Positions 3,021 through 57,823 of a DNA stretch of 58,849 nucleotides are shown here, piece by piece. The DNA is taken from positions 62,001 through 120,849 of the IMG/VR virus record IMGVR_UViG_3300033121_001601, one strand, 5' to 3'. Under the pieces are notes generated by a model, which saw only the letters and a program-made list of their open reading frames with translations, was not told the origin of the DNA and did not search any database. The position numbers and the translations under genes are program-made. Every line of letters starts with the position of its first letter. The first letter of the stretch is position 1. The stretch comes from an uncultured virus (IMG/VR IMGVR_UViG_3300033121_001601) (lineage: Duplodnaviria; Heunggongvirae; Uroviricota; Caudoviricetes).

Positions 3021-4415
3021 ATGGCCTACAGTTCCTTCCGTGAAAAATCCGTCTTTTTGGCCGAAATGCAACAAGCCAATGAGAAAATGAAGACCTTGCT
3101 CGGACGAATCAAGGTTGCTCTGAGTGAACAGGGGTATCCCCTTCGGAAAGACACCTACCACTTTCTTACTCGGGTCCTGGAGCCGTCCAACCGAGCAGAG
3201 CGGACCCTGTTCATGCTTTTGTTCCAGTCGGCCTACAGAAGCGAACTGCTATCTGCTGGGAGCTCCTACCTTGCCGTTCGGTTTGCTAACGAATTCATCC
3301 AAGAATTGGTGAAACATCCGGAGCTTATCTCCAGGAATGAAGTTGAACTGATGACCGAGTATGAGGAGCTCGTTGCCGACCTAAACCGCCAGATTACCTC
3401 AATTTCTTTGCCGGTGACGGAAGAGTGGATGCAGCAAGAGATCGAACGCATCTGTGAGGATCCCATTTTGGCCGAAGCTGTTTGGCAAGCCATCTCTGTT
3501 TCGGGCCTTGAAGGCAAGATCCATGTGGAAGATGGCACACTCCCCAACTACGTGGTGGAACAAAAGTCAGGATATTACTTCAGTGTCCTGAAACCATTCA
3601 AGTTCATGCTGCCAAAAAACGGCTGCTGGGAAGCTCAGAACGTCAAGGTCATGCTGGTTGATGGCATCCTGGAACGGGTAAGCGAACTGGACAAGATCCT
3701 GAACGGAGCCATGCAGACCAAGATTCCGACTTTGCTGGTAGCTCATGGGTTTTCCGAGGAAGTGGTTGCTACGATCAAAGCCAACGTAGACTACGGCAAA
3801 TTTAACATCATGCCCGTCAGGCTTACCTCCGACCTGGAGTCCCTGAACGTTTTGAACGATATTGCCGTGGTCTGTGGAGCTGATGTGGTTTCTACCCTAA
3901 AGGGACAGATGGTGGTATTTACCGAGTTCGACTCACTTCCCATCGTTGAGAGAATTCGACTCACTTCCCAAGAGCTGACTATCGAAAATGCCAAAACAAG
4001 GAGGGCCGTTTCTAACCACCTCCGAATGCTCCTGGAGAAAAGGCAAAATCAATCGGAGATATCGGATATCTCCGATCTGATTGACCGTAGAATCCAAGGG
4101 CTCATCTCGGCCGCTGTTACCCTTCGGCTTCCCAACATGCCCGCTTCCAAAAGGGATAATGCCAAGGTCAAGATCGACGTTGCCCTTCGAAGCGCAAAGA
4201 CCCTCCTGAATCTCGGAAAGGCAAACCTTCAGGATGTCAAAGGTTCCCCAGCACCCCATGGGAGCCTCCAGGGAGCCTTCTGGAAGGCTTTGAAGGAGGT
4301 GCAAAGGGAGATTAACACCATGCCCACTCTGAGCGCCTATACCGGTATTTACTTCGCCGGAAAGACCATCCTATCCATGATGACAACAGGGGGGTTGGTG
4401 GAAATTGTTACTTAG
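3021..4415 (+). CDS. Divergent GroEL/Cpn60-like chaperonin
   Basis: Intermediate/apical-domain-like segments GLEGKIHVEDG, VMLVDGILERVSELDKIL, PTLLVAHGFSEEVVATIKAN, LNDIAVVCGADVVS; no GDGTTT motif. Confidence 0.75.
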   Translation: MAYSSFREKSVFLAEMQQANEKMKTLLGRIKVALSEQGYPLRKDTYHFLTRVLEPSNRAERTLFMLLFQSAYRSELLSAGSSYLAVRFANEFIQELVKHPELISRNEVELMTEYEELVADLNRQITSISLPVTEEWMQQEIERICEDPILAEAVWQAISVSGLEGKIHVEDGTLPNYVVEQKSGYYFSVLKPFKFMLPKNGCWEAQNVKVMLVDGILERVSELDKILNGAMQTKIPTLLVAHGFSEEVVATIKANVDYGKFNIMPVRLTSDLESLNVLNDIAVVCGADVVSTLKGQMVVFTEFDSLPIVERIRLTSQELTIENAKTRRAVSNHLRMLLEKRQNQSEISDISDLIDRRIQGLISAAVTLRLPNMPASKRDNAKVKIDVALRSAKTLLNLGKANLQDVKGSPAPHGSLQGAFWKALKEVQREINTMPTLSAYTGIYFAGKTILSMMTTGGLVEIVT

Positions 4416-5272
4416 GTTTTTAGAGCTGTGGTAATTCCCTGAATCAACTTGGTCAATAGCTCATCTGGAATATTGTCTCCCATGTAAGGTTTTAGATTGG
4501 CAACAAGTGAGTTGTGGATCTTTTGGCCCAAACCGCCACCAGGAGCGGTAGCAGCACCTCCCGAGGCTGCTTGAGTCTGCCCCTGAGTTGATGCAGGAGT
4601 ACCAGCCCGACCGGAAGCTGGTGCTTCTCCGGATGCTTGAGCAGCCATCTGATCAATCTGCGCTTGTGGCAGAACAGCCGGAATCTTGCCGACCTTGGTC
4701 AGCTTGTCCAGCTGATTCCAGGTGAGCTGAGTGAGTTCCTGGGCTGCCTGAGCATTGTTGATATAGGGGATGTCCGAGCTAGAGAACAGCCGCTTCAGGA
4801 ACCCGCCCTGCTTGTTGATGGCAAGGGCCTGCTGGAAAGCCGGTGCCATGTTGGCTCCAACAGGTTGATCCGGGTTGTTCTTGGCATTGGACATCATCCG
4901 AGATTTGAGCAGAACAGGGAGATCTTGTCGCAAGAATTCCGAAAGACCCTGGAAGAAACCCATGGCTTTCCCAAGCATCGCACTGGTTTTCTTGGGATCG
5001 TTGCCGGCCTTGCCGGAAATGAGATTGGTCAGCTCAGCTTCAGCAGCATCCAGACCAGCTTTAATGCTGTTCAAAGGAGGAATGAACTCACCGAGGGCTG
5101 ATTCCACTCCAGTCATGGCATCCACAATCTGGGAAATAGTAGCGGTATCCAATTTTTCAGCGATCAAGTAGTGGGCTTCAAGGAGCTGCTTGGCCTCATA
5201 GTAAGCAACAGCTTGTTCCTGGGCCTTTTTCTTGGCATATTCTTCCTTGAGTGTCAAACTCTTCTCGGTCAT
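4412..5272 (-). CDS. Hypothetical protein, possible virion/internal head protein
   Basis: 286-aa ORF with Glu-rich N-terminus and Ala/Gly-rich linker; TATTTA motif upstream. Confidence 0.6.
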   Translation of the reverse strand: MTEKSLTLKEEYAKKKAQEQAVAYYEAKQLLEAHYLIAEKLDTATISQIVDAMTGVESALGEFIPPLNSIKAGLDAAEAELTNLISGKAGNDPKKTSAMLGKAMGFFQGLSEFLRQDLPVLLKSRMMSNAKNNPDQPVGANMAPAFQQALAINKQGGFLKRLFSSSDIPYINNAQAAQELTQLTWNQLDKLTKVGKIPAVLPQAQIDQMAAQASGEAPASGRAGTPASTQGQTQAASGGAATAPGGGLGQKIHNSLVANLKPYMGDNIPDELLTKLIQGITTALKT

Positions 5273-5331: not shown

Positions 5332-6033
5332 ATGGAAATCAAGGTCCGGCCAGCTCTTACGGTCGAAGAGTTGGAAAAACTCAAGCAAGAACGTGAGGCT
5401 GTGGACAACGCGGCCAAGAAAAAGGAAATGTCTCGAATTCTCAGAGGCAACCTTCAAGCTAAAGGTGACGCAGCGAAAACCAAGATCGACCGATTTCATC
5501 TTCCTGTCCTGCATATAAACGACCCTACTCAGTGGGCTTCTCAACCTAATCAGAACCGGCCCAGGTTTACAGATGAGGCTGCCTACAAAACCTGCCTTGG
5601 AAATTGTTGTGGAATAGAAGGCCTAAAGGCAGGTTGCTGTCAGATAGATCCTGATGACATGGAACGCGTCCTGGGTCCTCTTGACGAAGAGTGGATTGAG
5701 AATATTGTTGTTTGGTTGCGGCGGAAAGGAATTGCTGCTTCCAGAGCTGACATAGTAATCGACTGGGAAGAGGGTAAAATCATCGGCGAGAGGTTCTTCA
5801 ACGGAGAGAGAAAAGCCGTCTTCCTGGCCAAAGAAAGCTACCCCATTTTGCGTTTCCAAGTCTTTGGGCCAAGATTTGCTTGCAAATTTCTGAATCCAAC
5901 GAATGGGAAATGCACTATCTATGAAAAGAGGCCCAGTATGTGCCAAGGCTATCTCTGTCAGTACGTGAAGGCCAATTTTTTAATCCGAACTGACCCCGTG
6001 AACCACCCAAATACGTACACCAAATTTCGATGA
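5332..6033 (+). CDS. YkgJ-like Cys-cluster (Zn/Fe-chelating) protein
   Basis: CLGNCC...GCC and CKFL...GKCTIYEKRPSMCQGYLC; SD AGGAAGGGG before ATG 5332. Confidence 0.75.
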   Translation: MEIKVRPALTVEELEKLKQEREAVDNAAKKKEMSRILRGNLQAKGDAAKTKIDRFHLPVLHINDPTQWASQPNQNRPRFTDEAAYKTCLGNCCGIEGLKAGCCQIDPDDMERVLGPLDEEWIENIVVWLRRKGIAASRADIVIDWEEGKIIGERFFNGERKAVFLAKESYPILRFQVFGPRFACKFLNPTNGKCTIYEKRPSMCQGYLCQYVKANFLIRTDPVNHPNTYTKFR

Positions 6034-6062: not shown

Positions 6063-6587
6063 ATGAACGAGAAGGCAGAAGAAATCCCCGTGTTATGGAA
6101 GAGCGCCGACGGCAAGCGTTTTGCCCAGGAGCATGTCTTCAACTGGGTTGCCTCCACGAAACTAGACCGTGAGAACGACTACCAGGTCATCGTGGGCACG
6201 GACTCACACAGGCACAGTGATCAGTTCAGGTTTATTACTGTGATTTGCGTATACCGGGTGGGCAAGGGAGGCAATTACTACTACCTGGAGAACTACGAGC
6301 CTCGGGAAAACTACGTCCAGGCAACACGTGGCAAGCGGGTGAAGGGCAACCAGAAGCTCCGAATGTTCAACGAAGTTGTTCGGTCTGTTGAAATGGCCAC
6401 TAACCTGTTTGATACAACAGGAGTGCTTCCGGTAGTCCACATCGACGCTTCTCCTTCTCACCGGAAGGAATTTACATCAGAATTTAGTGATCAGCTCAAA
6501 GGTTACGTTGCCTCTAATGGATTTGAGTGCGTCCTGAAGCCAAATTCATTTGTAGCTAATGCTATAGCTGATAAGCACAGCAAATAG
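6063..6587 (+). CDS. RNase H-like YkuK/DUF458 family protein
   Basis: YQVIVGTDSH, FITVICVYRVGKGG, RMFNEV, VHID, KPNSFVANAIADKH. Confidence 0.85.
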   Translation: MNEKAEEIPVLWKSADGKRFAQEHVFNWVASTKLDRENDYQVIVGTDSHRHSDQFRFITVICVYRVGKGGNYYYLENYEPRENYVQATRGKRVKGNQKLRMFNEVVRSVEMATNLFDTTGVLPVVHIDASPSHRKEFTSEFSDQLKGYVASNGFECVLKPNSFVANAIADKHSK

Positions 6588-6669
6588 CTGCGCAACCGAG
6601 CAATTCCATCAATCCAATCCCAGGGTCATATAGACACAATCGAAGAACCTGAAAGAAGGAATTCTTCGA

Positions 6670-6975
6670 ATGTCAACAGATATTGATCGTACTAAGCTTG
6701 AAACTGCTATTGAGCGTGAGGTCTACAAGTTTGTGTGTCAACTCAAAGAACACATGTACGACCACACGATGATCTACCTGAACCGAACTCAATCTGATGT
6801 TGACCGAACGGTTGCAGACCGGATCCTACAGATTGCCAAGAACGCAGTCGAAGATGGGTTCATGACCAAGGTGGACTTTTTCAAGAAGGCCATTGATGAG
6901 CCTTTGAATCAGTTTACGGAGACCGATTCAAGCCCTTTACCACCTGGAGAGTCAGGGAAGAAAGGGAGAAAGTAA
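6670..6975 (+). CDS. Hypothetical protein
   Basis: 101-aa ORF with AAGGA SD. Confidence 0.65.
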   Translation: MSTDIDRTKLETAIEREVYKFVCQLKEHMYDHTMIYLNRTQSDVDRTVADRILQIAKNAVEDGFMTKVDFFKKAIDEPLNQFTETDSSPLPPGESGKKGRK

Positions 6976-14187: not shown

Positions 14188-14362
14188 TTTTGTCACACTC
14201 ACAGAGCCAATCATTTACCGGAAATAGTTCCTTGTGTAGCTCTAGCAGAGTCGGTGGCGCTGTGGCAACCCTGGAGGGTCTGCTTGTTCTCTTGCTGGAT
14301 GAAGCGACTAGTGTGTCCAGGTTAGATTTTCACATGGTGTTTGATAGGATGCAGGGAAGGAC

Positions 14363-14659
14363 ATGCCTCACTTAAAACAAGGGAAGCTGTATCGGTTCAA
14401 GTGTTGCGGGTCTTTATTTAAAGAGGCAGAGGGTGAAAAAGTTATTGGGAGGGTCAACAAGGAAGATGTGCTGATGTTCATTGAACAAAGCACAGAAGTG
14501 CCTTACGTTTACAAGGTGCTTTCTGGAGACCAGGCGGGCTGGCTGTGTGCTTACCTGGATTGCTTTGAGGAGCTAACCGATGCTGAAGAAGTTGGAAAAG
14601 GGGAAGCTATACCGAACCAAGCAGATTCAGGTTCTCATGAAAACACATTACAAAAGTAG
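14363..14659 (+). CDS. SH3-like paralog
   Basis: LKQGKLYRF...KVLSGDQAGWL. Confidence 0.65.
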   Translation: MPHLKQGKLYRFKCCGSLFKEAEGEKVIGRVNKEDVLMFIEQSTEVPYVYKVLSGDQAGWLCAYLDCFEELTDAEEVGKGEAIPNQADSGSHENTLQK

Positions 14660-14822
14660 CGGCAAGCTTGCTACAATTCCGCCTCAATCTATTGTGTGTT
14701 TCCTTGGACACCACGCTTCCAACCACTGGATTATCCAGGTAGTTTACGGCGAACTGATTGGTTGGTTATTTTTGGAGAAGAATTCGTTGGACGCTTTGTT
14801 CACGAAGCCAAAGGGATTATAG
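14580..14822 (+). CDS. SH3-like paralog
   Basis: LEKGKLYRT...QVVYGELIGWL. Confidence 0.65.
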   Translation: MLKKLEKGKLYRTKQIQVLMKTHYKSSGKLATIPPQSIVCFLGHHASNHWIIQVVYGELIGWLFLEKNSLDALFTKPKGL

Positions 14823-14826
14823 CATC

Positions 14827-15147
14827 ATGAAGAAGTTGGAGCCGGGCAAATTCTACCTGACCCGAGAGGGGCACAATCTTTGGAAAACGGATAGTAGTGG
14901 TGCAAATCGCGTCAGGAACCAGGTACTGAAAATCTTGCTGCCTGGGACGATGGTTTTGTTTACCAAATTCGGAAAATTCCGTTACATACAGGTTGTATTC
15001 GAAGATGTTGTCGGCTATATCTGGTGCAACACCAACATATCGATGCACGATCACCTGGAGCCAGTAACAGAGGAGAACCTGGAAGAGCTCCAAGAGGCCA
15101 TGAAGGCAGACAGCGGATGGAGGCCACGCCATCATATCCGATCTTGA
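14827..15147 (+). CDS. SH3-like paralog
   Basis: LEPGKFYLT...QVVFEDVVGYI. Confidence 0.65.
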   Translation: MKKLEPGKFYLTREGHNLWKTDSSGANRVRNQVLKILLPGTMVLFTKFGKFRYIQVVFEDVVGYIWCNTNISMHDHLEPVTEENLEELQEAMKADSGWRPRHHIRS

Positions 15148-15175
15148 TAAAATCCATCCCTGGGAGCCGGGGACG

Positions 15176-15364
15176 ATGGTAAAGACCTGCGGGAATGACA
15201 TCCCTTTGTTCAAGACCTCCCGAGCTGGCTCTTTTGCTTTTCTGCAAATCCCTCCTGGAGAGTTGGTGATGTATGTTGATTGTGAGGCCAACCGTATGTG
15301 TAAGGTGATTTACGGTGAGAACATCGGGTGGACCTATTCCGATGCTGTGACAACCCCTCGTTGA
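15176..15364 (+). CDS. SH3-like paralog (start uncertain)
   Basis: KVIYGENIGWT. Confidence 0.55.
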   Translation: MVKTCGNDIPLFKTSRAGSFAFLQIPPGELVMYVDCEANRMCKVIYGENIGWTYSDAVTTPR

Positions 15365-15396
15365 CTTGAGAAGTTTTCGTGTTTAACCACATTCCC

Positions 15397-15768
15397 ATGT
15401 CTGACAGGCTAAGTCGTGGAGTCTTGCGAAATGGCAAGAAACAGATTATCAGGGCCAACCGGAGAAACAGGTTGGCCAACAAGTTGAAGCGAGGAAAACT
15501 TTACACTTTTCTTGCGGCGAGCGCAACCCAGGCCATTTACGCTACGCCCAATATAATGGGGAAGGTGATTGGCTGCCTTCCAGACAAGGCCACGGTGATG
15601 TGCGTTGACCCTGCACCCTTCCTTTATAAGAACCGGAAGAACAACTGCTGGATGATGTTCTACATTGGCTATGGGGAGCTTTTCGGGTATGTGGCTTGCC
15701 ACTACAGCGAAGCAGCAGAAGAAGAGGAATTTCAAGCACACAGGTTCTTCAAGCGAGTCTATGCTTAA
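15397..15768 (+). CDS. SH3-like paralog
   Basis: LKRGKLYTF...YIGYGELFGYV. Confidence 0.65.
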   Translation: MSDRLSRGVLRNGKKQIIRANRRNRLANKLKRGKLYTFLAASATQAIYATPNIMGKVIGCLPDKATVMCVDPAPFLYKNRKNNCWMMFYIGYGELFGYVACHYSEAAEEEEFQAHRFFKRVYA

Positions 15769-15771
15769 GGC

Positions 15772-16218
15772 ATGACCGTTGTTATGCCTCAAAGATTCCG
15801 GAAGGGTGAAGTCTTCTGCTACGTCAGCTCTTTTGACTCTTCCTTGCCCGTGTGTGCCAAGGATGAGACAGGAAGGTTCATCCGCCTTCACGAGAACCCT
15901 GTGAACTGGCTGGCTCAAGGCCATGAGCTGTTTCACAAGGTACCCGGCAAGAAGCCCTGCTTTGGGTTTGTGTGCGAGTACGACCCGATGTGCCTCGTGG
16001 TTCATGCCGGTTCCGAGTGGAATGAATTTGAGCAACATGCCTTCTTTGGCATCCTCTTTGTGGACTCACATCCTCACATGATCCGAATTGAAGACAATGA
16101 CCCACATCTTTGGAAGGTCATTGACCCTGAGCAAGAACTGATCCAAAACTGCAAGGGAGACATCACGACGCCATCAAAAGCTCTCCATGACTCCATGGCA
16201 CAACTTCACCCCGCTTAA
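15772..16218 (+). CDS. Hypothetical protein
   Basis: 148-aa ORF in the same operon. Confidence 0.55.
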   Translation: MTVVMPQRFRKGEVFCYVSSFDSSLPVCAKDETGRFIRLHENPVNWLAQGHELFHKVPGKKPCFGFVCEYDPMCLVVHAGSEWNEFEQHAFFGILFVDSHPHMIRIEDNDPHLWKVIDPEQELIQNCKGDITTPSKALHDSMAQLHPA

Positions 16219-16314
16219 GGCTCTACCTTCAGGGCTCTACCTTCAGGGCTCTACCTTCAGGGCTCTACCTTCAGGGCTCTACCTTCAGGGCTCTACCTTC
16301 AGGGCTCTACCTTC
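16217..16314. repeat. Tandem repeat, 7 x 14 bp (AGGGCTCTACCTTC)
   Basis: Counted directly; first copy has one mismatch; no spacers. Confidence 0.97.
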
Positions 16315-16634
16315 ACCAGTTTGCCATAAATGTGGCGGATTTGAACGTAGCCATTTACGTGCCCCTTGTTGTTCGAAATCTGGTATCTCTTGTCCTTCGG
16401 GGCTCCTTTGGAACCTCCCGTAACGGCACTCAGGAGGTGCAAGAATTGCCTTCCTTCCACCGTGCATAGCACAACATCACCTGGGGCCAAAGAAGCTTCT
16501 GGAGGGCTTCCCAGGGGCTCCACGGTGCAGAGCTGACCAGACTTAATTCTTGGCTGCATCGAATTTCCGTGAGGTCTGAACCTCACGGTCTCCCCAGCCT
16601 TTAACCTCTCAATATAGTGACTTGCCCATCCCAT
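16299..16634 (-). CDS. S24/S26-like peptidase domain protein
   Basis: VRFRPHGNSMQPRIKSGQ...PGDVVLC...FLHL (Ser motif GxSM; His at the general-base position). Confidence 0.7.
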   Translation of the reverse strand: MGWASHYIERLKAGETVRFRPHGNSMQPRIKSGQLCTVEPLGSPPEASLAPGDVVLCTVEGRQFLHLLSAVTGGSKGAPKDKRYQISNNKGHVNGYVQIRHIYGKLVKVEP

Positions 16635-17113
16635 TAGTTTGTACCTGTGTGTGTTTATGGAGTGCTTGTTATCAGGAACATTCTCGTTCGCAACCCCTGG
16701 AAATCACCTGAGATTCTGCGATAACCTGGGTCGAGTTTGGTGGTCAATGAACCCAATCTATTCACTGAGTGTGGCAATTGAGTTGACAGGCTTTTCTATT
16801 TCACTCTTCGAGTGAAAGGTTGTTGCAGGATTTGCTCACTGTAGCGCTTTGTCAAGTAGGATTGAAGCTCCAGAGTGTCCGTGATGAGCCGTGGTTCTCC
16901 TCGAAGGTACTTCGGGCATCCGCACTGGGGGCAGTGGCCCCCAACGCAGTGACAATAGAACCGGTTGCAGTATGAGCATTCCCAAATGCCGCCACAGAGG
17001 TGAAACATGATAGTGATCCTAGTGACTTACAAAGTAGTAGTTCTGGCGGGAATCGAACCCAATAACTTGCTTGTCGATGGAAGATGTAAATCATTGCCCT
17101 TCAAGGCCACAGT

Positions 17114-17365
17114 CTATGGCAATTTTTCTTTTGGAGGCACGAACTCACTTGACACAAAGAACTCTCGGATGGCAGGCCACATTGGATGGAATTCGATGAA
17201 GCCTGCTTCATGGAGCTGTTCCAGGACGGGGATCACCACATCCTCCGAGGCCTTCATGTGTTCTGCCAGAGTGGCCACAGGCATGAATGGCCAGTCCGGA
17301 TGCTGTTTAATGAAATCCCGGATGGCACGATAGATTAGGTCTCTTCCACCTCTGATAATAGGCAT
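17114..17365 (-). CDS. Small winged-HTH-like protein
   Basis: VATLAEHMKASEDVVIPVLEQLHEAGFIEF. Confidence 0.55.
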   Translation of the reverse strand: MPIIRGGRDLIYRAIRDFIKQHPDWPFMPVATLAEHMKASEDVVIPVLEQLHEAGFIEFHPMWPAIREFFVSSEFVPPKEKLP

Positions 17366-17453
17366 GTCTAACTTAAGAATCTCTAGGGCGAGACTCCATG
17401 TCTAGGACATGGTGCTATCTCCGTTTTAAGTCTAGTTATACCCCGGAGCAACG

Positions 17454-18119
17454 ATGAAGAAAACCCTTCAGAAAATATTCAACCTGTGGGAAGCAAGCGC
17501 CGAGAAAGGCTCGGACAAGCAAAGCGGCAAGAGTTGGCAAGACGGCAAGCCGGAAGGCAAGAAGCTTGCCGCCCAGGAAGTCCCGGATGAGAAAGTTGCA
17601 AGCTACAACAAGCCAAAGCCGGTTCAATTGCACAATGGTAATGATGGCTGGAACCAAGGTGGTGGCCCTTCTGGCTGGAATGCTCTGGAAAAGAAAGCCA
17701 AGTTTACTCCAGGGAATGATAAGAACAAGAACGCCCATTCTCTCCAGCAAGAGCAAGACAAGCTTCACCAGTTAGAAGAGGAGTTAGCTGCCCTAGGAGT
17801 CCAGGAAGAAGGTTTGATTACTCCCGATATGGGAACGTCGGTCCTTGGAAGGTCCCTTTTTACTGGAGCTGCCTTACAGCCACCTAATGGATATGGTCCC
17901 AACTTTGACCCTGCCGGCCCGGCTCCCGAAGAGCTTCCTCAGGGTTATGAGAAGAATACTGTTCCTGATCCCATTGCTCCAGAAGAGGGCTCAGGTTTTC
18001 AGCACCAGGATGTTGCTGGCACAATCATTGCTCCAAAGCAATGGATCCCTCGGGAATCAGTTGCTAAGAGACTTGCTGAGGCTCTCAATCAGCAACGTCG
18101 AGCAAAACTACGAAGATAG
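17454..18119 (+). CDS. Hypothetical low-complexity protein, possible virion protein
   Basis: 221 aa; TAGTTA motif and GGAG SD upstream. Confidence 0.6.
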   Translation: MKKTLQKIFNLWEASAEKGSDKQSGKSWQDGKPEGKKLAAQEVPDEKVASYNKPKPVQLHNGNDGWNQGGGPSGWNALEKKAKFTPGNDKNKNAHSLQQEQDKLHQLEEELAALGVQEEGLITPDMGTSVLGRSLFTGAALQPPNGYGPNFDPAGPAPEELPQGYEKNTVPDPIAPEEGSGFQHQDVAGTIIAPKQWIPRESVAKRLAEALNQQRRAKLRR

Positions 18120-43781: not shown

Positions 43782-44238
43782 CCCTGTTTTTCCTGCCCTT
43801 TCGAGGCCTTGCTGCCCAGTTCATATAGGATGTAAGGCACTCTGCTCGGATTTTCTCAAACTTTGCCTCATTGATCCTGAGGCAAAGACTCCTTGCCAGC
43901 TTTTTTCCAACCTCCCAGGCTTCGATCTCCTCTTGCACCTTTGCAATTTTGTAGGTAACGGTTGCATACCTCAGAGGTTTCCGAACCAACTCCGGATATC
44001 TGTCCTGGTAAGTAAAATCACACTCCAACATCCATGCATGACCAATTTCATGCAGGAAGATGTAGTAGAGGATTTCAAGCTTTCGTTGTGCATATAGGGT
44101 TATCACCTTATCATGGTACTGATTCTTCCTTTTGTTTGAATACTCTATCCTCCAGGAGTGCTGAGAGCAGAACTCAGTCAGACGCTTAATACTCGCCTGG
44201 ATCTCCTCTTGGCCAAGTTCAACAGGAAAAAGTGCCAT
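43705..44238 (-). CDS. HExxH metallopeptidase-like protein (ImmA/IrrE-like)
   Basis: FLHEIGHA...EEIEAW..G..LA. Confidence 0.65.
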   Translation of the reverse strand: MALFPVELGQEEIQASIKRLTEFCSQHSWRIEYSNKRKNQYHDKVITLYAQRKLEILYYIFLHEIGHAWMLECDFTYQDRYPELVRKPLRYATVTYKIAKVQEEIEAWEVGKKLARSLCLRINEAKFEKIRAECLTSYMNWAARPRKGRKNRDGIISANINISDNSSSGYGSFKESG

Positions 44239-44360
44239 GTGAATAACCTTAAATGTAGCAAGCCCTACATTCACTTGGGCCATAGAGCAACCTACCATAC
44301 ATGCACTGTCATATAAACCAATTTAACCGGACTGAATTTAACTCTTCTCCCTCCCCCCTT

Positions 44361-44387
44361 TTCCCTCCCCTCTTGGTTATCCTCCAC
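44361..44387 (+). repeat. Dispersed intergenic repeat, copy 3
   Basis: C/T tract + CTTGGTTATCCTCCAC. Confidence 0.8.
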
Positions 44388-44526
44388 CACCATGGAAAGT
44401 CTGGAAAAAAGATTGGCAAAAGCAACAAAACCTAGAAGTTACGCTTTGAAGTTTTCATCGGAATGCTATTCTGACTTGACGTGGGGGTGTTGGTGGTTAA
44501 GATGGGTTGTGCAAGGAGAAAATCAC

Positions 44527-44778
44527 ATGACAACCCTGATTACCGGCAACACATACCCCGTCAAGGAAAAGCTTAAGGCTCTCGGAGGCCGGTGGGACTC
44601 GGCCCGCAAGGGCTGGATGGTCCCGGACGAAAAGGCTGCTGAAGCTCAGCAGCTAGTAAACTCAGCTTCCACCAACTACACTCCCCGGAAGCGGTACGGC
44701 ATTCGGACGTTTTCTGGGTTCTGTACGCGGTGTGGAGACGATTGTGGCGGTACGGCCTACCACTGCAACTATGAGTAA
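44527..44778 (+). CDS. Small protein (DUF5710-like N-terminus plus Zn ribbon)
   Basis: GNTYPVKEKLKALGGRWDSARKGW; AAGGAG SD; TTGACG...TAAGAT promoter at 44476. Confidence 0.65.
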   Translation: MTTLITGNTYPVKEKLKALGGRWDSARKGWMVPDEKAAEAQQLVNSASTNYTPRKRYGIRTFSGFCTRCGDDCGGTAYHCNYE

Positions 44779-44832
44779 GGTGTTCCTACTCACAAAAGGG
44801 TTCATTCGGTGTGACACTTTGGCTTCGGAGAT

Positions 44833-44905
44833 GCTCCCTTAGCTCAGTGGTTAGAGCAGCCGCCTTCAAATCGGTTGGTCGTGGGTTCAAATCCTACAGG
44901 GAGCG
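44833..44905 (+). tRNA. tRNA with UCA anticodon (opal/UGA suppressor candidate)
   Basis: GCTCCCT/AGGGAGC acceptor, GCTC/GAGC D-stem, GCCGC-CT-TCA-AA-TCGGT anticodon arm, 5-nt variable loop, GGTTCAAATCC, G73. Confidence 0.85.
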
Positions 44906-44909
44906 CAAG

Positions 44910-45371
44910 ATGCGTAAAACATGGACTTCATTTGAAGATGACGAATTCATTCCTATTGTCGATGAGGCCCTTCAAGAGTTGACCAGAGAAGAGTGCGACC
45001 TCGAAAAGGAACCAATTCTGTCCTACATGTTTTCCCGGTATCCCAAATGGGAAAAAGTAAATCTTCTCTATGTGTGCAAAAATGCTAAGAATGGAAGCAA
45101 GAAAGGGGTCATCAATCTTGATGTCGCCGACAGCATTGTTCTTCTTGACAAGGAATACCTTGTTGTCAATTATTGCAAAGTGGTAGCTTTTGAGCCTCGC
45201 AGCGAATGGGTTGCGTTCAATTACATAGTCCAAGCCCACTGGAAAGAGGGTAAACTTCAAGTTTGTGCTGATATTGCCCCAAAAGATGAAGATTTGGAAG
45301 AACTTGACCCTCTGTTTGAACATTACTTGAGCTTGGAAGAAACGACCACACGTTGCGTGTGCAAGACATGA
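44910..45371 (+). CDS. Hypothetical protein
   Basis: Start trimmed to MRKTW just after the tRNA. Confidence 0.55.
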   Translation: MRKTWTSFEDDEFIPIVDEALQELTREECDLEKEPILSYMFSRYPKWEKVNLLYVCKNAKNGSKKGVINLDVADSIVLLDKEYLVVNYCKVVAFEPRSEWVAFNYIVQAHWKEGKLQVCADIAPKDEDLEELDPLFEHYLSLEETTTRCVCKT

Positions 45372-45607
45372 TGGTTACCATGCTCATCCAGCTCAAAGGC
45401 AAGACCAAGACATAGATGAGGTGAAAGAAGCTGCTGGACTTTTGAATTGCTACAAGCTAGACATCAATGACCCCAAAGTCCAAAAGGTATTCCATGACTT
45501 TGATGGTCAATTTGACATCAAGCAAAAAAGGGCCATTTTTACGATTAGCTCATACGAGAAGCAACACCGGAGCCCGGGAATGGGCCAAGAAGGGAAGAGA
45601 GAAGAAT

Positions 45608-45682
45608 ATGGCAGCACGTAGAAGAACCAAGGGGCGTCGGGCGCCGTGGTCATGCGGTCACCGTGGGTTTGGGGTAGCCTGA
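45608..45682 (+). pseudogene. Truncated paralog of the 46306-46671 N-terminus
   Basis: MAARRRTKGRRAPWSCGHRGFGVA* versus MASSKKPKKRTFACGHKGYGILCHRC. Confidence 0.55.
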
Positions 45683-45691
45683 AAGGGTTTG

Positions 45692-46258
45692 CTACGTTGT
45701 TTCACTATGATGAATGCGATGGCAGTTAGCACACAGTAAATCGCATTTGTCCAACTCCACCACAATGCGTTTCCAACCTCTTTTCCTGAGCTTATCCCAA
45801 CTTACATCTTTTTCGGCTGGGATTCGATGATGGAAATCGAAAGCTGCATGTTGTGTAAATCCACAGTTCTTGCACACTCCGCCAAGATACTGAACAGCTT
45901 TGAGTCTAAGTGCTACTCCTCGCTCTCTGTCATAAACTGAATAGCACTTAGAACAGTAAGAGGTTCGTTTTTGTACCGAACCTTTAAAGGAGGTAAGTGG
46001 CAAATGCAGCTTGCATCGGTGACACCACTTCATTCCCGGGATCAGCTCAATACTTCTGTTCTGTGTGGCCTTGAGCCATCCACAAACATTTGTTCTTCTG
46101 GTTATGCCAAACTTCTTCATTTTGCGTTCGATCGTAACCTTGTTTACACCCAATTTGGCTGCTATTGCTCTCATAGAAAGACCTTCTTGGAAGTAAAGTT
46201 GTTCTAAGTCTTCTTTAGAGGGGGCTGCTTTCATGCTTGACTTTTTCGATGTGGGCAT
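45692..46258 (-). CDS. HNH homing endonuclease with N-terminal HTH
   Basis: GLSMRAIAAKLGV; YLGGVCKNCG...FDFHH...ELDKCDLLCANCHRIHH. Confidence 0.9.
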   Translation of the reverse strand: MPTSKKSSMKAAPSKEDLEQLYFQEGLSMRAIAAKLGVNKVTIERKMKKFGITRRTNVCGWLKATQNRSIELIPGMKWCHRCKLHLPLTSFKGSVQKRTSYCSKCYSVYDRERGVALRLKAVQYLGGVCKNCGFTQHAAFDFHHRIPAEKDVSWDKLRKRGWKRIVVELDKCDLLCANCHRIHHSETT

Positions 46259-46305
46259 TACACTTTAGTCCATTCGAGCCAAACAATAGTGACTCAGGAG
46301 TAAAT

Positions 46306-46671
46306 ATGGCATCCAGCAAAAAACCAAAAAAACGTACTTTTGCCTGCGGACATAAAGGTTATGGCATTTTGTGTCACCGATGCGCCCAGGCAAATGACCT
46401 GGAGACTAAGGCTAATGAGTTGGCCCAAGCAATCAAGGCTCAGGCGAAAACCCTCCCCGCCTTCGTAGTGGTCCAAAAGGCCGCCAAGGCTACGGAGACG
46501 GCTCCGGAATTGGAGTCGGGCATTCTGATCAAGGGTGGGGGTCAGCGCATCTTCATCGGGACCAATAACAAGGGCCAGGAGACAGCCCTGACCCAGGCTG
46601 TGGCTACCATGCGGGAGCATGCTACCCGCCTGGAGGCACGGCCAGAGAACAAGGTTCGTGTCTTCTCGTAG
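46306..46671 (+). CDS. Hypothetical protein with N-terminal CGH..C..C Zn motif
   Basis: AGGAG SD before ATG 46306. Confidence 0.65.
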   Translation: MASSKKPKKRTFACGHKGYGILCHRCAQANDLETKANELAQAIKAQAKTLPAFVVVQKAAKATETAPELESGILIKGGGQRIFIGTNNKGQETALTQAVATMREHATRLEARPENKVRVFS

Positions 46672-46742
46672 CTGGAATGACTAAGGAAAAGGTAGCCGAT
46701 ATCTATCGGCACTACTCTTGAAAGGTTGACAGAATGATACAC

Positions 46743-46831
46743 GGAGAGTTGCTAGAGCCGGGCAATAGTCCTGTTTGCTAAACATAGGACAGCCTTAATT
46801 GGCTGCGGGGGTTCGAGTCCCTCACTCTCCG
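46743..46831 (+). tRNA. tRNA-Ser(GCT)
   Basis: GGAGAGT/ACTCTCC acceptor, TT-GCT-AA loop, long variable arm; anticodon stem imperfect. Confidence 0.8.
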
Positions 46832-46840
46832 CTAAGAAAG

Positions 46841-46872
46841 AAACTCCAGGATCTTCGGGTTCTGGAGTTTTT
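46841..46872 (+). terminator. Rho-independent terminator after tRNA-Ser
   Basis: AACTCCAGGATC-ttcg-GGTTCTGGAGTT followed by TTT. Confidence 0.8.
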
Positions 46873-47175
46873 ACATTTGAACTTTCGTGATTAGTTTGCT
46901 CGTCAAGACCGAAAGGGATGTCAAAGAGGCTTTTCCTCAACAGGAAGCCAAGTATGCCCGTAGACTTGCCCAGGAGGCGCAGGAAGCCGAGTTCAAGGAT
47001 CTGAAGGGCTATCCCATCTCCCTCCAGCTTTCGAGCCCTGGAAGGGCTCCCAGACTCAAGGAAGAATACCTCGGAGACCTTACCTTCGATGCTTTCAGGG
47101 AGCGAAGGGCAATTGGAAGGAAGTGAGCGGCTATCTTGAGAATCGTTTTCAGGATGAGAAAATCCAAGGGGGAAA

Positions 47176-48159
47176 TTAGGAGAACAGGTGGCGACAGATG
47201 GCCGACCCTCTATGTTCTAGGTGCTTCCATTTGGTCTTGAAGGAATCCGTGTTGGTACCGCCAAAAAGTGTTGCATCGGAATGTACCTCGGCTAGACCAG
47301 CAAGCAGCAGAGCTGCTTCTTCAGGTCTTTTGCTGAACTCTTTCGCTTCTTTAGCGGATAAACAGTGAAGATCCATGTCCATCTCGATTAGTCGAGCTAC
47401 CTCTTTCTGCTCGGGATAGAGTTCACGGAAAATCTGAGCGGATATCTTGGCATGATTGGGGTAATAGACCTTGCCCTCAGCGTCCACCTCACGGCAGAAA
47501 GGTTTGCCGCAATCATGCCATAAAGCGTACTTCTCAAGGATGTGATCCGGAGGAAGTTTCTCTTGAAGCTTCTTGCCATAGGCCATGAGCCACTGTGGAA
47601 ATTTCCATTGTTTCTGGTAGGAGTAGTGAGGATCCCGAAGGAACTGAAGAAGATCAAGCAGGTGTTCTTTGACAGATCCGCCGTGTTGAAGTATGTTCTG
47701 TCCAGAAGTCTGCTGGGTATTCTCCATGGCTTCCACCACTTCAAACTTCCTCTTCAGACGCTCCGGAGCACCTTCATTCACCCTTTTCCCAGCCAGAGGA
47801 AGACCAGAACAAACCTTCTTTACGTCAGGCCCAGGAACTATTGAAATGGCTGTCAACTCATTCCCAATGTCAGGCTCTCGGAACTCGGCAAACCGAATCC
47901 CCTTCTCTTTGAGCTTCAGAGAGAGCTCAATGAGCTTCAGCTCATTGGGAACGTTCAGGCAGATTACGGAGTTGCTGGTCCGATACCACTCTTTCCACTC
48001 TTCAGGGAAGGATGCTGCAAACTCCATGGCAGCGTGTGTTGTCTGTGGAACTTGGTAGCCGGTAGGTAGGTCAGAATGGGTCACAACATAGAGTTTGTGG
48101 CCAGTCTGTTCAGACAGGGGGAGTTGAACAAGAATTCAAGCTTCGTGGTTGGTGTTCAT
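47176..48159 (-). CDS. Pth2-like peptidyl-tRNA hydrolase fused to an HD domain; in-frame UGA at codon 8
   Basis: KLYVVTHSDL..G.Q..Q..HAA...SNSVICL...FREPDIGNELTAI...LPLA, then QHG..V...LWHDCGKPFC...YPNHA. ATG 48159 (MNTNHEA*ILV...) is in frame, with TGA at 48136-48138. Confidence 0.8.
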
Positions 48160-48233
48160 TTCTCTTCTATTTTGTAGATATTCGGGACGGTTGTCTTGAT
48201 GTTTCGGATCAGAAAGAGTTAGAGTTCATCTCA

Positions 48234-48608
48234 TCAATGTTCAGCATCGAACTCCTGGACCTCATACCATCCGATGTTCAGGCAGTCCATAATCTCTCCT
48301 GCCTTCTCGTCGGAAATATTGTTTGGGACACGGGTGGTAGCCCAGTCCAGGTCAGTTAGAGGATCACCCGTCAGTAGCTCACAAAGCTTGCTATACTTGC
48401 CTGGAAAGCAAATGTCCGAGATGTTATTCTCATCCCCCGCATAGGAACCAAGGCTAATTCCCTTGACTTCCTTGATATTCAGGTTTCGAGCATATTGCTC
48501 AGCGGATACTTTTTTGCTGAATACCCTTTTATTGGTACCACCAGACCTGTGATAGAATTGGTCGTCATACTCCCAATTTGCCTCAACCACAATGTAGACT
48601 TTACCCAT
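48234..48608 (-). CDS. Hypothetical protein (leaderless)
   Basis: KVYIVVEANWEYDDQFY; TAGATT-6-ATG. Confidence 0.65.
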   Translation of the reverse strand: MGKVYIVVEANWEYDDQFYHRSGGTNKRVFSKKVSAEQYARNLNIKEVKGISLGSYAGDENNISDICFPGKYSKLCELLTGDPLTDLDWATTRVPNNISDEKAGEIMDCLNIGWYEVQEFDAEH

Positions 48609-48639
48609 GGCCCCAATCTAACACTGAGGCCACAGGAAA

Positions 48640-48921
48640 TCAACCTGTCATCTTCCGGAGAGTAGCTCCAAGGAGTGCTTGGTAGGGCCCCGGAAAGGCC
48701 ACAGAAATGTGGTACCGAGGGTTGGTTGGGTTGTGAGAGAAGTTAGCATTCAAGATGCCAATGAACCTGACAATGCCCACTCTTTGACCATTTTTCTCAG
48801 CCAAGAGTTGATCCCCAGGCACAAGTTGCGGTTGGGGGACTTGGAAGTGCCCCTGAACCAAAATGCCATTCTGAAACGGGATAGAATTTTCTACCAAGAA
48901 CATACTACACCTGCTGCCCAT
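48640..48921 (-). CDS. Hypothetical protein
   Basis: 93-aa ORF; start uncertain. Confidence 0.5.
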   Translation of the reverse strand: MGSRCSMFLVENSIPFQNGILVQGHFQVPQPQLVPGDQLLAEKNGQRVGIVRFIGILNANFSHNPTNPRYHISVAFPGPYQALLGATLRKMTG

Positions 48922-48931
48922 ATTTATGGGT

Positions 48932-49258
48932 ATGAAAAAGTTGGAATTTTACTCTATCATTCGGGAAGCTGTCAAGAATGCCTTAGTCGAAGCTTTGGAC
49001 TACCATGGAATGGAAGAGCCAAAGGAAATCCGCAAGGCAAGGTTGGCAGGCAGAGCGCAAGCACGAGCAAAGCTAGCAGGAAAAACACCCGCAGAGCTAG
49101 AACAAGCTTATTTGGCTATTGAAAGGCAGTCAGAGAGGGAATATGAGGACCCTATCAGGAGTGAATACCTCCTGGGAGCTAGGGAGCAAGTTCGAGACAT
49201 GCTGAAGAAGCTTGGTCGTGGACTTCCGAAAAGGTCACAAGACCCCTGGACTCGCTAA
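48932..49258 (+). CDS. Hypothetical protein with shared N-terminal leader
   Basis: MKKLEFYSIIREAVKNALVEA; TATTTA 5 nt upstream. Confidence 0.65.
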   Translation: MKKLEFYSIIREAVKNALVEALDYHGMEEPKEIRKARLAGRAQARAKLAGKTPAELEQAYLAIERQSEREYEDPIRSEYLLGAREQVRDMLKKLGRGLPKRSQDPWTR

Positions 49259-55148: not shown

Positions 55149-55224
55149 TGGTCCTCCCGTCGGGCTTCGATTCCGAATCTCCGGGGTTTCAATCCGGCAC
55201 ACTTACAACTTGTGCTACAGGAGG
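55149..55224 (-). tRNA. tRNA-Phe(GAA), atypical T-loop
   Basis: CCTCCTG/CGGGAGG-A-CCA; loop TT-GAA-AC; T-loop ATCGAAG. Confidence 0.75.
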
Positions 55225-55269
55225 ATATGGCTCACAGGGAGGGAGTCGAACCCACACCGAGGCAAGTTA

Positions 55270-55819
55270 CATTACCACTATGGCTTTCGCCACCTTTCGT
55301 TTGTGGTCTGGACTATACCTTCATCCCTTTGGGATGGTGCCCGTCTAGTCTCTACACCTTCCGATTTTCGTCGGCTTGGCTCGGGGTTGACATAGCTAGC
55401 ATTGGTGCTAACCAATGACATCTTCTTCAAAATGCCTTTGGCATACATGTTCTAACCACTCTCAAGCCTATCAAGGCAAATTTTGCTCCAAACAATGCAA
55501 GAACAAATTCTACGTTGATAGGCGTCGAAAATCGCTAAAACGAAAAGCAGTTGAATACAAAGGGGGTTCTTGCTCCAAATGCGGGTACAGCAAGTGCATT
55601 GCTGCCATGGATTTTCATCATCTCGATGCAGCCCAGAAAGATTTTGGCATTTCCCAAGCGGGACATACAAAATCATGGGATGCCATTCGAGCCGAATTGG
55701 ACAAGTGCATTCTTTTGTGTTCGAACTGCCACCGTGAGTTGCACGATAGCTAACTTTAGTTTTCTCCGAATTTGAGCACTGTTTCAACTCATGTTGCCAT
55801 GAGAAGCTGCTAACAGTTT
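55270..55819 (-). mobile_element. Group I intron at anticodon position 35/36
   Basis: P1 GCTGT/GCAGC with U.G at the 5' splice site; terminal omega-G; core elements AAATTCGGAGAAAC, GTAGAGACTAGACGG and AAGGTATAGTCC. Confidence 0.9.
55415..55753 (+). CDS. Intron-borne HNH endonuclease, antisense to the intron
   Basis: YKGGSCSKCGY...AMDFHH...ELDKCILLCSNCHRELH. Confidence 0.9.
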   Translation: MTSSSKCLWHTCSNHSQAYQGKFCSKQCKNKFYVDRRRKSLKRKAVEYKGGSCSKCGYSKCIAAMDFHHLDAAQKDFGISQAGHTKSWDAIRAELDKCILLCSNCHRELHDS

Positions 55820-55867
55820 ACAGCTTGCTGCCCTACCATTGGGCGACCTGTGAATAGCGGCTCTATC

Positions 55868-57726: not shown

Positions 57727-57823
57727 TTAACCTGGAGGGATTCGAACCCTCATACTCGGCTTCTAAGCTTGCCTGTGGCGAAGCCATTGAAGACCGATGG
57801 CTTTGCTGTTAGCCTACAAGCTC
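57727..57823 (-). tRNA. tRNA-like gene with 25-nt insert in the anticodon loop (UCA or UAG anticodon)
   Basis: GGCT/AGCC D-stem; TCGGT-[CTTCAATGGCTTCGCCACAGGCAAGCTTAGAA]-GCCGA; GAGGG-TTCGAAT-CCCTC. Confidence 0.6.

Follow-up and report, generated by a model that had tools for sequence, protein, structure and literature searches.

Why should a phage gene be interrupted by a stop codon only a few codons after its start, and why should a tRNA whose anticodon matches that stop be encoded close by? The question is raised by a 58,849-nucleotide stretch of DNA from an uncultured virus of the class Caudoviricetes (positions 62,001 to 120,849 of IMG/VR record IMGVR_UViG_3300033121_001601; this whole stretch is referred to below as the window), in which a gene predicted to encode a fused Pth2-like and HD-domain protein carries an in-frame UGA as its eighth codon and a tRNA gene with the anticodon UCA lies within a few kilobases. 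From comparison of related loci we infer, with a probability of about 0.7, that readthrough dependent on this suppressor tRNA gates production of the Pth2-HD enzyme; the amino acid inserted at the UGA, the substrates of the enzyme and the purpose of the gate are likewise inferred. Judged by its sequence, the locus is the opal, fused-gene form of a module that is widespread in large and jumbo phages. In this module the Pth2-like and HD genes, which may be fused or lie side by side, each open with a very short leader and a stop, most often UAG; a suppressor tRNA gene with the matching anticodon is found nearby, and the remainder of the genome keeps the standard code.

Results

An in-frame UGA interrupts the Pth2-HD gene

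The Pth2-HD gene lies on the minus strand (47176–48159), where a single 327-codon frame, whose eighth codon is the UGA, runs from an ATG at 48159 to a closing TAA at 47176–47178. The leader (48139–48159) consists of the ATG (48159–48157) and six sense codons, AAC ACC AAC CAC GAA GCT, and encodes M-N-T-N-H-E-A. It is followed by the TGA (48138–48136) and then, in the same frame, by ATT CTT GTT CAA CTC CCC CTG TCT GAA CAG ACT GGC CAC AAA CTC TAT GTT GTG, with A as the +4 base. Read across the gate, the translation is M-N-T-N-H-E-A-stop-ILVQLPLSEQTGHKLYVV. A 13-codon linker, ILVQLPLSEQTGH (48097–48135), which is disordered or of low confidence in the structural model described below, separates the stop from the first strand of the Pth2-like domain and contains no canonical start codon; a scan of 17 codons in this frame of the window, between the TGA and a GTG at 48084, found no ATG, GTG or TTG. 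It is at this GTG, codon 26 of the full frame, that the open reading frame (ORF) caller placed the start of the gene, giving a product of 302 amino acids.

An initial annotation of this DNA had described the ATG at 48159, the seven-codon leader, the in-frame TGA and the frame open to the KLY strand, and had noted that this strand lies upstream of the called GTG with no canonical start in between. Both observations were confirmed in the sequence, the Pfam PTH2 match starting at residue 22. The purine-rich leader that it had also reported is present: the nine bases that abut the ATG on its 5′ side, AGAAGAGAA (48160–48168), are indeed purine-rich, but as a Shine-Dalgarno match they are weak, which makes them a weak candidate for a ribosome-binding site. 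Other genes of this phage have merely a weak purine-rich region at −14 to −7.

A short leader and an early stop are conserved across Pth2 loci

Relatives were collected as 185 loci (80 viral contigs, 80 metagenomes, 19 prokaryote genome contigs and six cultured phages). A tblastn search with the Pth2 domain gave a match in 130 of these and covered the N terminus in 126, which formed 100 clusters at 90% identity. We defined a strict gate as an ATG leader of 1–9 codons followed by an in-frame stop, with no ATG, GTG or TTG before the conserved strand. By this definition, 69 of the 100 clusters are strictly gated, 66 with TAG and three with TGA; another 22 have a leader and stop together with a later canonical codon (TAG in 20, TAA in one and TGA in one), in many cases a TTG or ATG that encodes a conserved residue, and the remaining nine have an ordinary start. 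The initial annotation had turned on whether an early stop upstream of the KLY strand recurs in homologues, and it does so in these 69 clusters. The leader-stop pattern exceeds chance: an in-frame ATG occurs within nine codons 5′ of the upstream stop in 91 of the 100 Pth2 clusters, compared with 15.3% of 1403 long frames from 100 related loci. The leader is two or three codons long in 57 of the 69 strict clusters, and position +4 is occupied by A in 54 clusters, by G in 14, by T in one and by C in none.

These clusters also bear on a different account of the locus, which we regard as unlikely, namely that the leader is a mini-ORF at whose stop ribosomes terminate, translation of the enzyme beginning by re-initiation or by direct initiation at the AUU at 48135 or the CUG at 48117, with the suppressor unrelated. 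Consistent with such an arrangement, the window and a TGA-gated relative with 66% protein identity (L081) both have ATT directly after the stop, and the post-stop codon is ATT in 34 and one of ATT, ATC or ATA in 42 of the 69 strict clusters; the initial Met of homologues beginning MDQQTGPKLY lines up with the CTG at codon 15, and one complete genome (G007) is gated without a detectable suppressor. In the other 27 strict clusters, however, the codon after the stop is one that cannot start translation (GTT, AAC, ACT, GGC and others), and sequences such as TAG-AAC-GAA-AAA offer no near-cognate codon before the strand. The downstream start at ATT, CTG or GTG that the initial annotation had set against its own proposal therefore does not account for the family as a whole. 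Further, re-initiation needs no shared frame, yet in 87 of 99 clusters an ATG within 30 nucleotides 5′ of the stop shares its frame (frame 0), compared with one cluster for frame 1 and four for frame 2. In one large clade a GGAG lies 7–8 nucleotides 5′ of the leader ATG, a spacing that suits this ATG and not the post-stop codon, which is about 19 nucleotides away.

The pattern of substitutions points in the same direction. Over all pairs within a 24-cluster clade, the five post-stop codons differ by 286 synonymous and 454 non-synonymous changes, and the three leader codons by 48 synonymous and 462 non-synonymous changes, which argues that the post-stop segment is translated in frame and that the leader encodes no conserved peptide. 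In the K-x-G-D-K-L-Y clade (24 clusters, among them L008, L014, L017 and L036), a CTA (Leu) codon precedes the gate stop in 15 of 24 clusters and a CTA-TAG-ATT/GTT core is conserved; the P-site codon may matter for the efficiency of suppression.

The identity of the stop follows the suppressor tRNA's anticodon

We compared the stop codon of each gated cluster with the suppressor tRNAs encoded in its locus (at most 21 kb). Among the 66 TAG-gated clusters, a tRNA(CUA) is present in 34 and a tRNA(UCA) in none; among the three TGA-gated clusters (the window with L001, a 189,179-base viral contig; L081; and L054), a tRNA(UCA) is present in all three and a tRNA(CUA) in none. The co-occurrence with a matching suppressor that the initial annotation had called for is thus observed, and no gated cluster with a suppressor shows a mismatch between stop and anticodon. 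When a tree of 96 Pth2 domains was built by maximum likelihood, the TGA state required two separate changes, as dictated by branches with good support: L001 groups with L081 in a single clade, and L054 is nested among TAG-gated relatives with CUA tRNAs. In loci with separate Pth2 and HD genes, the suppressor tRNAs are on the same strand as the gated genes and mostly 0.02–2 kb away. Each of the six homologues found on bacterial chromosomes or megaplasmids lacks the gate, and no suppressor lies near any of them. That the type of stop follows the neighboring anticodon, without a mismatched pair, also argues against initiation after a mini-ORF, in which the suppressor would have no part.

The same data weigh on a host-driven leak, in which the phage tRNA would be inessential and the stop would act as a constitutive throttle or sense how active the release factors are. 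This account, which includes the version in the initial annotation that made limiting release factor 2 (RF2) a trigger, appears to us quite improbable. It fits with the very early position of the stop and the purine that follows it in 68 of the 69 strict clusters, with the gated genomes in which no suppressor was seen, and with the frequent use of TGA as a terminator, which would make strong suppression harmful. It leaves unexplained the pairing of TAG with CUA and of TGA with UCA, which switched together twice, as well as the usual placement of the suppressors 0.02–2 kb away on the same strand. Nor did folding of the sequence 3′ of the UGA reveal a readthrough-stimulating RNA structure or a hairpin of the selenocysteine insertion sequence (SECIS) type (z = −0.82; 40 of 200 shuffles fold equally well). 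Because the gate is tightly linked to a dedicated tRNA, the suppressor tRNA is more likely to be its input than termination failure or RF2 limitation.

The tRNA(UCA) of the window is a 74-nucleotide gene on the plus strand (44833–44906), called by ARAGORN and matched by Rfam family RF00005 with 66.4 bits against a gathering score of 29. It folds into a standard 7/5 cloverleaf with a 5-nucleotide variable loop and a discriminator G (z = −4.0 against shuffles), and CCA is not encoded. The well-formed tRNA that had been placed about 2.3 kb from the gene is confirmed; it is encoded on the strand opposite to the gene, 2.27 kb from the gene's 3′ end and 3.2 kb from the TGA, and is the only one of the 12 tRNAs called by ARAGORN in the window with this anticodon. 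By structure it is a canonical opal suppressor, predicted to decode UGA. ARAGORN labels it "SeC" owing to its anticodon; selenocysteine as its cargo was rejected on the basis of the ordinary 74-nucleotide cloverleaf, the 5-nucleotide variable loop and the lack of a hairpin after the UGA.

Its sequence is identical in L001. In a set of 970 tRNAs from related loci its nearest kin are other phage suppressors, the closest being CUA suppressors of TAG-gated loci. The bodies of the window and L081 tRNA(UCA) differ, and it is therefore the match between anticodon and stop that is kept. The best Escherichia coli match is tRNA-Ile (84–88% identity), and the window's own tRNA-Trp(CCA) is dissimilar. The 5′ extension of an open frame at 44811–45371 (plus strand) encloses the tRNA(UCA), the two being in frame, and a plausible ATG start (MRKTWTSF...) for this open frame is found 4 nucleotides beyond the 3′ end of the tRNA.

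A blind search recovers gates at both Pth2 and HD genes

We searched 91 representative loci, blind to gene identity, for an ATG leader of at most nine codons, a stop and at least 70 open codons with no early start. The 189 matches with a TAG gate comprised 61 Pth2, 52 HD, 13 fused and 63 other frames, and the 113 with a TGA gate comprised three Pth2, one HD, two fused and 107 other frames. All 89 matches with TAA were other frames, with no Pth2, HD or fused gene among them. The gate is specific to Pth2/HD genes.

In 51 loci, Pth2 (about 112 amino acids) and HD (about 191 amino acids) are encoded by separate genes on one strand, in either order, and each is gated; the two genes abut or overlap in about half of these loci. 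Counted per locus and not de-duplicated, 160 HD genes have their own N terminus, of which 91 have a strict gate, 27 a leader and stop together with a later canonical codon and 42 an ordinary start. The complete 342,591-base genome G002 provides a TGA example of both, its Pth2 gene reading MES-TGA-VTQKHYLY and its HD gene MTWS-TGA-VTLP, beside two tRNA(UCA) genes. The same genome holds an RF-1 domain (C1:286878–287198, plus strand; 64.5 bits) in a 188-codon frame, too short for a full release factor, which may be a ribosome-rescue hydrolase resembling ArfB/ICT1.

Gates are also found in cultured phages. Tenacibaculum phage pT24 has ATG-AAA-TAG-ATA followed by a fused Pth2-HD gene, whose annotated coding sequence begins about 30 codons late, and a tRNA-Sup annotated 2.5 kb away. 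The Pth2 genes of Yersinia phage fHe-Yen9-04 and Cronobacter phage GAP32 begin MSH-TAG and MAQ-TAG, respectively, and the Pth2 region is unannotated in several relatives. Acinetobacter phage ME3 has MT-TAG with a CUA tRNA 0.4 kb upstream, and Mycobacteriophage Myrna has an ordinary GTG start. In phage XacN1 (L164; ORF364), a reversed HD-Pth2 fusion follows an in-frame ATG-AAG-TAG (MK-TAG), with an ATG four codons later. Reversed fusions in L057, L062 and L070, which begin MNLA-, MSFT- and MNT-TAG, respectively, likewise have an ATG four codons later; in such fusions the full protein could also be made without readthrough. No cultured phage of the TGA type emerged when the L054 Pth2 served as a tblastn query; the matches were to TAG-type phages only, and Atu_ph07 was not among them.

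The jumbo phages that resemble GAP32 show a different arrangement at their separate HD gene, which has an ordinary ATG and a conserved internal TAG (ELD[ST]G-TAG-GD) about 40 codons in (L162, about 4330–4900, in fHe-Yen9-04; L165, about 6300–6880, in GAP32). Because of this internal TAG, the HD gene is annotated as two or three short "hypothetical" genes.

The read-through frame is predicted to encode a Pth2-like domain fused to an HD domain

By sequence and model, the protein is a fusion of a Pth2-like domain with an HD domain similar in type to the one in CCA-adding enzymes. The Pth2-like domain occupies residues 22–125 (47785–48096). Pfam family PF01981 (PTH2) matches residues 22–116 over profile positions 2–108 of 115 with 29.5 bits, above the cut-off of 23, and the NCBIfam Pth2 equivalogs score far under their cut-offs (17.8 against 126 and 16.1 against 82). 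An AlphaFold model of the read-through protein, built with 41 aligned homologues out of 116 found, has a predicted local distance difference test score (pLDDT) of 93.1 and a predicted template modeling score of 0.88; residues 1–13 are disordered (pLDDT < 50) and residues 23–28 form β strand 1. Foldseek matched the N-terminal domain to 2zv3 (E = 4e-5), 3erj, 1wn2, 1xty and human Bit1 (1q7s), with target-normalized template modeling (TM) scores of 0.70–0.76, and a profile search of Protein Data Bank (PDB) sequences also retrieved 2zv3 (E = 4.2e-5).

The HD/HDIG-type domain covers residues of about 131–326 (47182–47769), and its nearest relatives are the HD regions of class II tRNA nucleotidyltransferases. 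The initial annotation had pointed to an HD domain of the type that acts in tRNA-end repair, and three kinds of comparison agree with it. The nearest Foldseek matches of the C-terminal domain are the tRNA nucleotidyltransferases 3wfo–3wfs (3wfo and 3wfr with E = 2e-3 and a low TM score); the PDB profile search gave 3wfp, 3wfo, 3wfr and 3wfq with E of about 5e-4; and residues 127–317 match positions 202–401 of the 466 in NCBIfam TIGR02692 (E = 8.5e-8), which is its HD half only. The score against this CCA-enzyme family is 31 bits, with a cut-off of 439, only the HD part being common. TIGR00277 (HDIG; E = 4.6e-5, 23.2 bits) and Pfam HD (residues 194–264, 18.8 bits) fall under their cut-offs of 27.6 and 22. 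PADLOC returned a weak Cas3-HD match (E = 0.007), which we treated as generic HD similarity, rejecting a Cas3 or defense identity.

The 41 aligned sequences share invariant H159, H215, D216, H236, D261 and H265, candidates for a motif of the H..HD..D type, and, in the Pth2 part, an invariant acidic residue and Thr pair (E95, D97 and T103). When the protein is aligned to 2zv3 with HMMER, a Tyr stands opposite the Lys of the archaeal "GK" motif; relatives have Gln or Glu at this position. We take this Lys and the Asp/Thr pair to be catalytic in Sulfolobus Pth2; because the Lys aligns with Tyr, the chemistry of the enzyme is uncertain, and its peptidyl-tRNA hydrolase activity is assumed. The window domain shares the Pth2 fold (PF01981; 2zv3, 3erj, 1xty and 1q7s), with a Pfam score above the cut-off, but differs from archaeal and eukaryotic Pth2 in its fusion to an HD domain as well as in the Lys-to-Tyr change. 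Similarly, residues 127–317 have their best sequence and fold match in the class II CCA-adding and A-adding enzymes (TIGR02692; 3wfo–3wfs), from which the window protein differs in having no nucleotidyltransferase head domain. By analogy with both families, the enzyme pair probably works on the 3′ ends of tRNAs.

The fold also speaks to a plain start at the GTG at 48084, with the upstream ATG and TGA irrelevant. This GTG is a legal start and the first after the stop. It would nevertheless begin the protein inside the core β strand of residues 23–28 (model pLDDT 93), four residues after the start of the Pfam PTH2 match, no purine-rich signal lies ahead of it, and relatives have no start at that place. 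Among 40 database homologues of the window subfamily, 22 are annotated from start codons at various places within the fold, Met45 being used in 11; such scatter is the mark left when gene callers fail at a start that is interrupted. We consider initiation at this GTG very improbable.

The TGA recurs in related DNA and the genome is not globally recoded

In L001, an independent record whose protein is 99% identical to that of the window, the ATG, the TGA and their flanks are unchanged. The stretch 46700–48700 is also spanned by contigs from three DNA runs, each belonging to a different study, with 17, 17 and 21 differences, and among the differences listed (16, 16 and 20, respectively) none falls at the ATG or the TGA. 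The sequencing error that the initial annotation had set against its own proposal is thus contradicted by L001 and these contigs. At least half of the sampled words of 46700–48700 are present in each of 20 public runs from nine studies of wastewater, sludge and river water. A contig from a metatranscriptome library also spans the gene; it may be DNA carry-over and is no evidence of transcription, and since 30 of its 57 differences from the window are unlisted, it does not bear on the TGA.

A more distant comparison is provided by L081, which reads ATG AGC CAA AAT GAA CTA GCT GAG ACC TGA ATT CAA GAA TAT AAA CTA TAC ATT. It has TGA-ATT at the equivalent site and no start codon before the KLY strand, with a GGAG 8 nucleotides 5′ of the leader ATG and its tRNA(UCA) 1.4 kb away. 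A TGA kept at the equivalent place at 66% identity is not what a recent nonsense mutation, raised as an alternative in the initial annotation, would leave.

The window belongs to a single 120,849-base contig (G000), which CheckV rates 31% complete; the 189-kb record of L001 is rated 48% complete, and the phage is probably a jumbo phage of several hundred kilobases. The stops of 141 heuristic genes in G000 are TAA in 52, TGA in 48 and TAG in 41. As the initial annotation had stated, TGA is an ordinary stop in the window, where three open frames on the plus strand, 260, 169 and 124 codons long, stop at TGA codons whose last bases are at 6033, 7560 and 7879, respectively. The coding density of G000 is 0.88 under the standard code and 0.89 with TGA as sense, and in-frame extensions beyond its TGA terminators are short (median, 12 codons). 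A screen for an ATG leader, a TGA and a long frame found no further convincing TGA-gated gene in G000 or the 189-kb record, and the candidates from a codon-usage screen of G000 and G001 all look non-coding. No RF-1-domain gene was found in G000 or G001, fragments that are 31% and 48% complete, respectively. Overall, the genome is not globally recoded, and it does not behave as a code 4 genome.

Together, a sequencing error, a recent nonsense mutation, genetic code 4 throughout, or selenocysteine are a highly improbable explanation: the "SeC" label and the existence of recoded phages with suppressor tRNAs (Borges et al. preprint, as far as its main text goes) would suit the last two, but the same TGA occurs in L001 and three DNA runs, L081 keeps it with an intact downstream frame, TGA closes 48 of 141 genes, coding density is not raised, and post-TGA frames have a median of 12 codons.

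Extensions after TGA were compared with those after other stops in two larger sequences, giving medians of 13 and about 20 codons in the 189-kb record (p = 0.034) and of 16 and 22 codons in G002 (p = 0.001). The shorter post-TGA extensions may reflect back-up stops in UGA-suppressor phages.

Neighboring features

The gene directly upstream of the Pth2-HD gene (48234–48608, minus strand) ends GAA CAT TGA TGA GAT GAA CTC TAA, that is, in tandem TGAs with a TAA three codons on. An ORF resembling an HNH endonuclease (45692–46258, minus strand; ending ...CANCHRIHH...) lies amid the tRNA genes, and in L081 an HNH-like gene also adjoins the gated Pth2-HD gene, on its upstream side. Rfam detected a group I intron at 55288–55851 (55.4 bits; region 55152–55851, minus strand) that adjoins a tRNA match at 55152–55224. 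This match was not called by ARAGORN in the window, and its L001 equivalent is an odd tRNA with a two-base anticodon; the tRNA may be intron-bearing or split. A second Rfam-only tRNA match is found at 57727–57823. Outside the window, at 14349–17954 of G000, three successive large ORFs share one frame with a single TAA between them, which may be chance. A megablast search of window positions 44000–49000 against a phage collection gave no match.

Discussion

How, then, would the Pth2-HD enzyme be made? We propose that ribosomes initiate at the AUG at 48159 and reach the UGA at codon 8, where, unaided, RF2 would terminate translation after a heptapeptide. Ribosomes would be unable to restart further on, since the first core strand has no start codon ahead of it. 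Once the phage tRNA(UCA) has been made, processed and charged, it would compete with RF2 and decode the UGA, and full-length enzyme would result. Because the stop sits in a disordered N-terminal tail, any inserted amino acid should be tolerated. The most likely purpose of such an arrangement would be to tie the yield of the enzyme to the activity or timing of the suppressor tRNA, with which it would scale. The initial annotation had proposed a Pth2-HD gene gated by readthrough and a matching suppressor; this core of the proposal now has strong comparative support, from the strict gate in 69 of 100 clusters and the covariation of stop and anticodon. Its further step, in which the stop would sense termination failure or limiting RF2, does not share in that support.

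A number of observations weigh against suppressor-dependent readthrough. In 32 of the 66 TAG-gated clusters, no suppressor lies in the fetched locus. When five whole records were checked for a distant suppressor, a pattern search found one in three, and full ARAGORN scans found none in the other two. One of these two is G007, the complete 176,695-base genome behind L038, which has 30 tRNAs and a TAG-gated Pth2 gene (MNL-TAG-TKFYVIV) and is an exception to the pairing of stop and tRNA. Conversely, suppressor tRNAs occur beside six of the nine ungated Pth2 genes. In the window subfamily the gate, judged on protein records, is not universal: 18 of the 40 database homologues are called with an ordinary Met before the KLY strand (MDCKLYII in nine). 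At the window locus itself, the Shine-Dalgarno-like match of the nine bases 5′ of the ATG is weak, an AUU abuts the stop and, from this locus alone, an AUU start is possible; the Lys-to-Tyr change in the Pth2 domain counts on the same side. In addition, TGA ends 56 of 205 (27%) and 210 of 395 (53%) heuristic genes in two phages with UCA suppressors whose records were covered in full or almost in full. Since TGA is a common terminator and efficient suppression would be costly, suppression must be weak or context-specific.

A doubtful refinement of suppressor-dependent readthrough casts the suppressor as a "reporter tRNA" and the gate as a homeostatic sensor of tRNA charging or 3′-end integrity. 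In this version, both gated enzymes would act on tRNA 3′ ends that are acylated or damaged, and one charged tRNA would have to beat the release factor for them to be made, which would give an ultrasensitive read-out of the tRNA pool of the infected cell. As negative feedback, excess Pth2/HD activity would strip the suppressor and so halt the enzyme's own synthesis; as a lock, the enzymes would be made only where the phage tRNA system works. If this were true, the suppressors of standard-code jumbo phages would exist mainly for this one switch.

In-frame stops that are conserved and whose yield is set by decoding in competition with a release factor are known from other systems. In prfB, the gene for RF2, an early in-frame UGA senses the level of RF2 through a +1 frameshift, and classical viral readthrough uses host near-cognate tRNAs to make C-terminal extensions. 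The present gate shares its early position with prfB; unlike these systems, it would combine a stop at the start of the gene and an unchanged frame with a dedicated cognate tRNA from the same genome.

A closer parallel is found in alternatively coded phages, in which TAG is reassigned to Gln (code 15) or TGA to Trp (code 4) and which include crAss-like, Lak, Jade and Agate phages, among others (bioRxiv 10.1101/2021.08.26.457843). As described in the main text of that preprint, recoded stops are numerous in many genes of these phages, mainly those for structural and lysis proteins, and coding density is higher when the alternative code is applied; in-frame stops are suggested to hold back certain genes or to make their expression conditional, and standard-code relatives with a TGA suppressor are noted. 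The word "hydrolase" does not occur in this main text. What the recoded phages, so described, have in common with the present locus is a phage suppressor tRNA that overrides a stop read as such by the host. Here, by contrast, TGA is a normal terminator (48 of 141 genes), coding density is flat, and a single stop lies at codons 2–10 of one family, Pth2/HD. The locus thus fails the tests of a recoded genome and is a minimal, gene-specific variant of phage stop-codon recoding.

Suppressor tRNAs in phages that use the standard code have been reported before. According to the accessible text of their descriptions, XacN1 (PMC5852040) and Atu_ph07 (PMC6102473) have many tRNAs, one or two suppressors, a Pth-like gene and the standard code. 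The authors of the former read through 18 annotated amber stops and identified no suppressor targets (PMC5852040). Those papers, in the text accessible, report no target, whereas the target described here sits upstream of annotated starts. PTH2 appears across jumbo phages in the catalogue of Iyer et al. 2021 (PMC7824862), which assigns it to the repair of tRNAs and the rescue of ribosomes and whose main text does not use the word "suppressor". In the accessible text of PMC5852040, PMC6102473, PMC7824862, PMC8386662, PMC13037316 and the Borges preprint, a set with subscription journals outside it, we found no published description of a stop-gated Pth2 or HD gene.

The finding has a practical side, in that gated genes are truncated or missing in public records, as in pT24, GAP32, fHe-Yen9-04 and ME3 and in 22 of the 40 database homologues. 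For the biology of these phages, it gives the suppressor tRNAs of standard-code large phages a concrete and conserved target, the first codons of Pth2-like and HD genes. If the gate is indeed opened by readthrough, it would link the tRNA set of the phage to an enzyme pair that probably cleans the 3′ ends of tRNAs, and it would represent a natural translational switch of one tRNA and one gate, a minimal form of phage code change.

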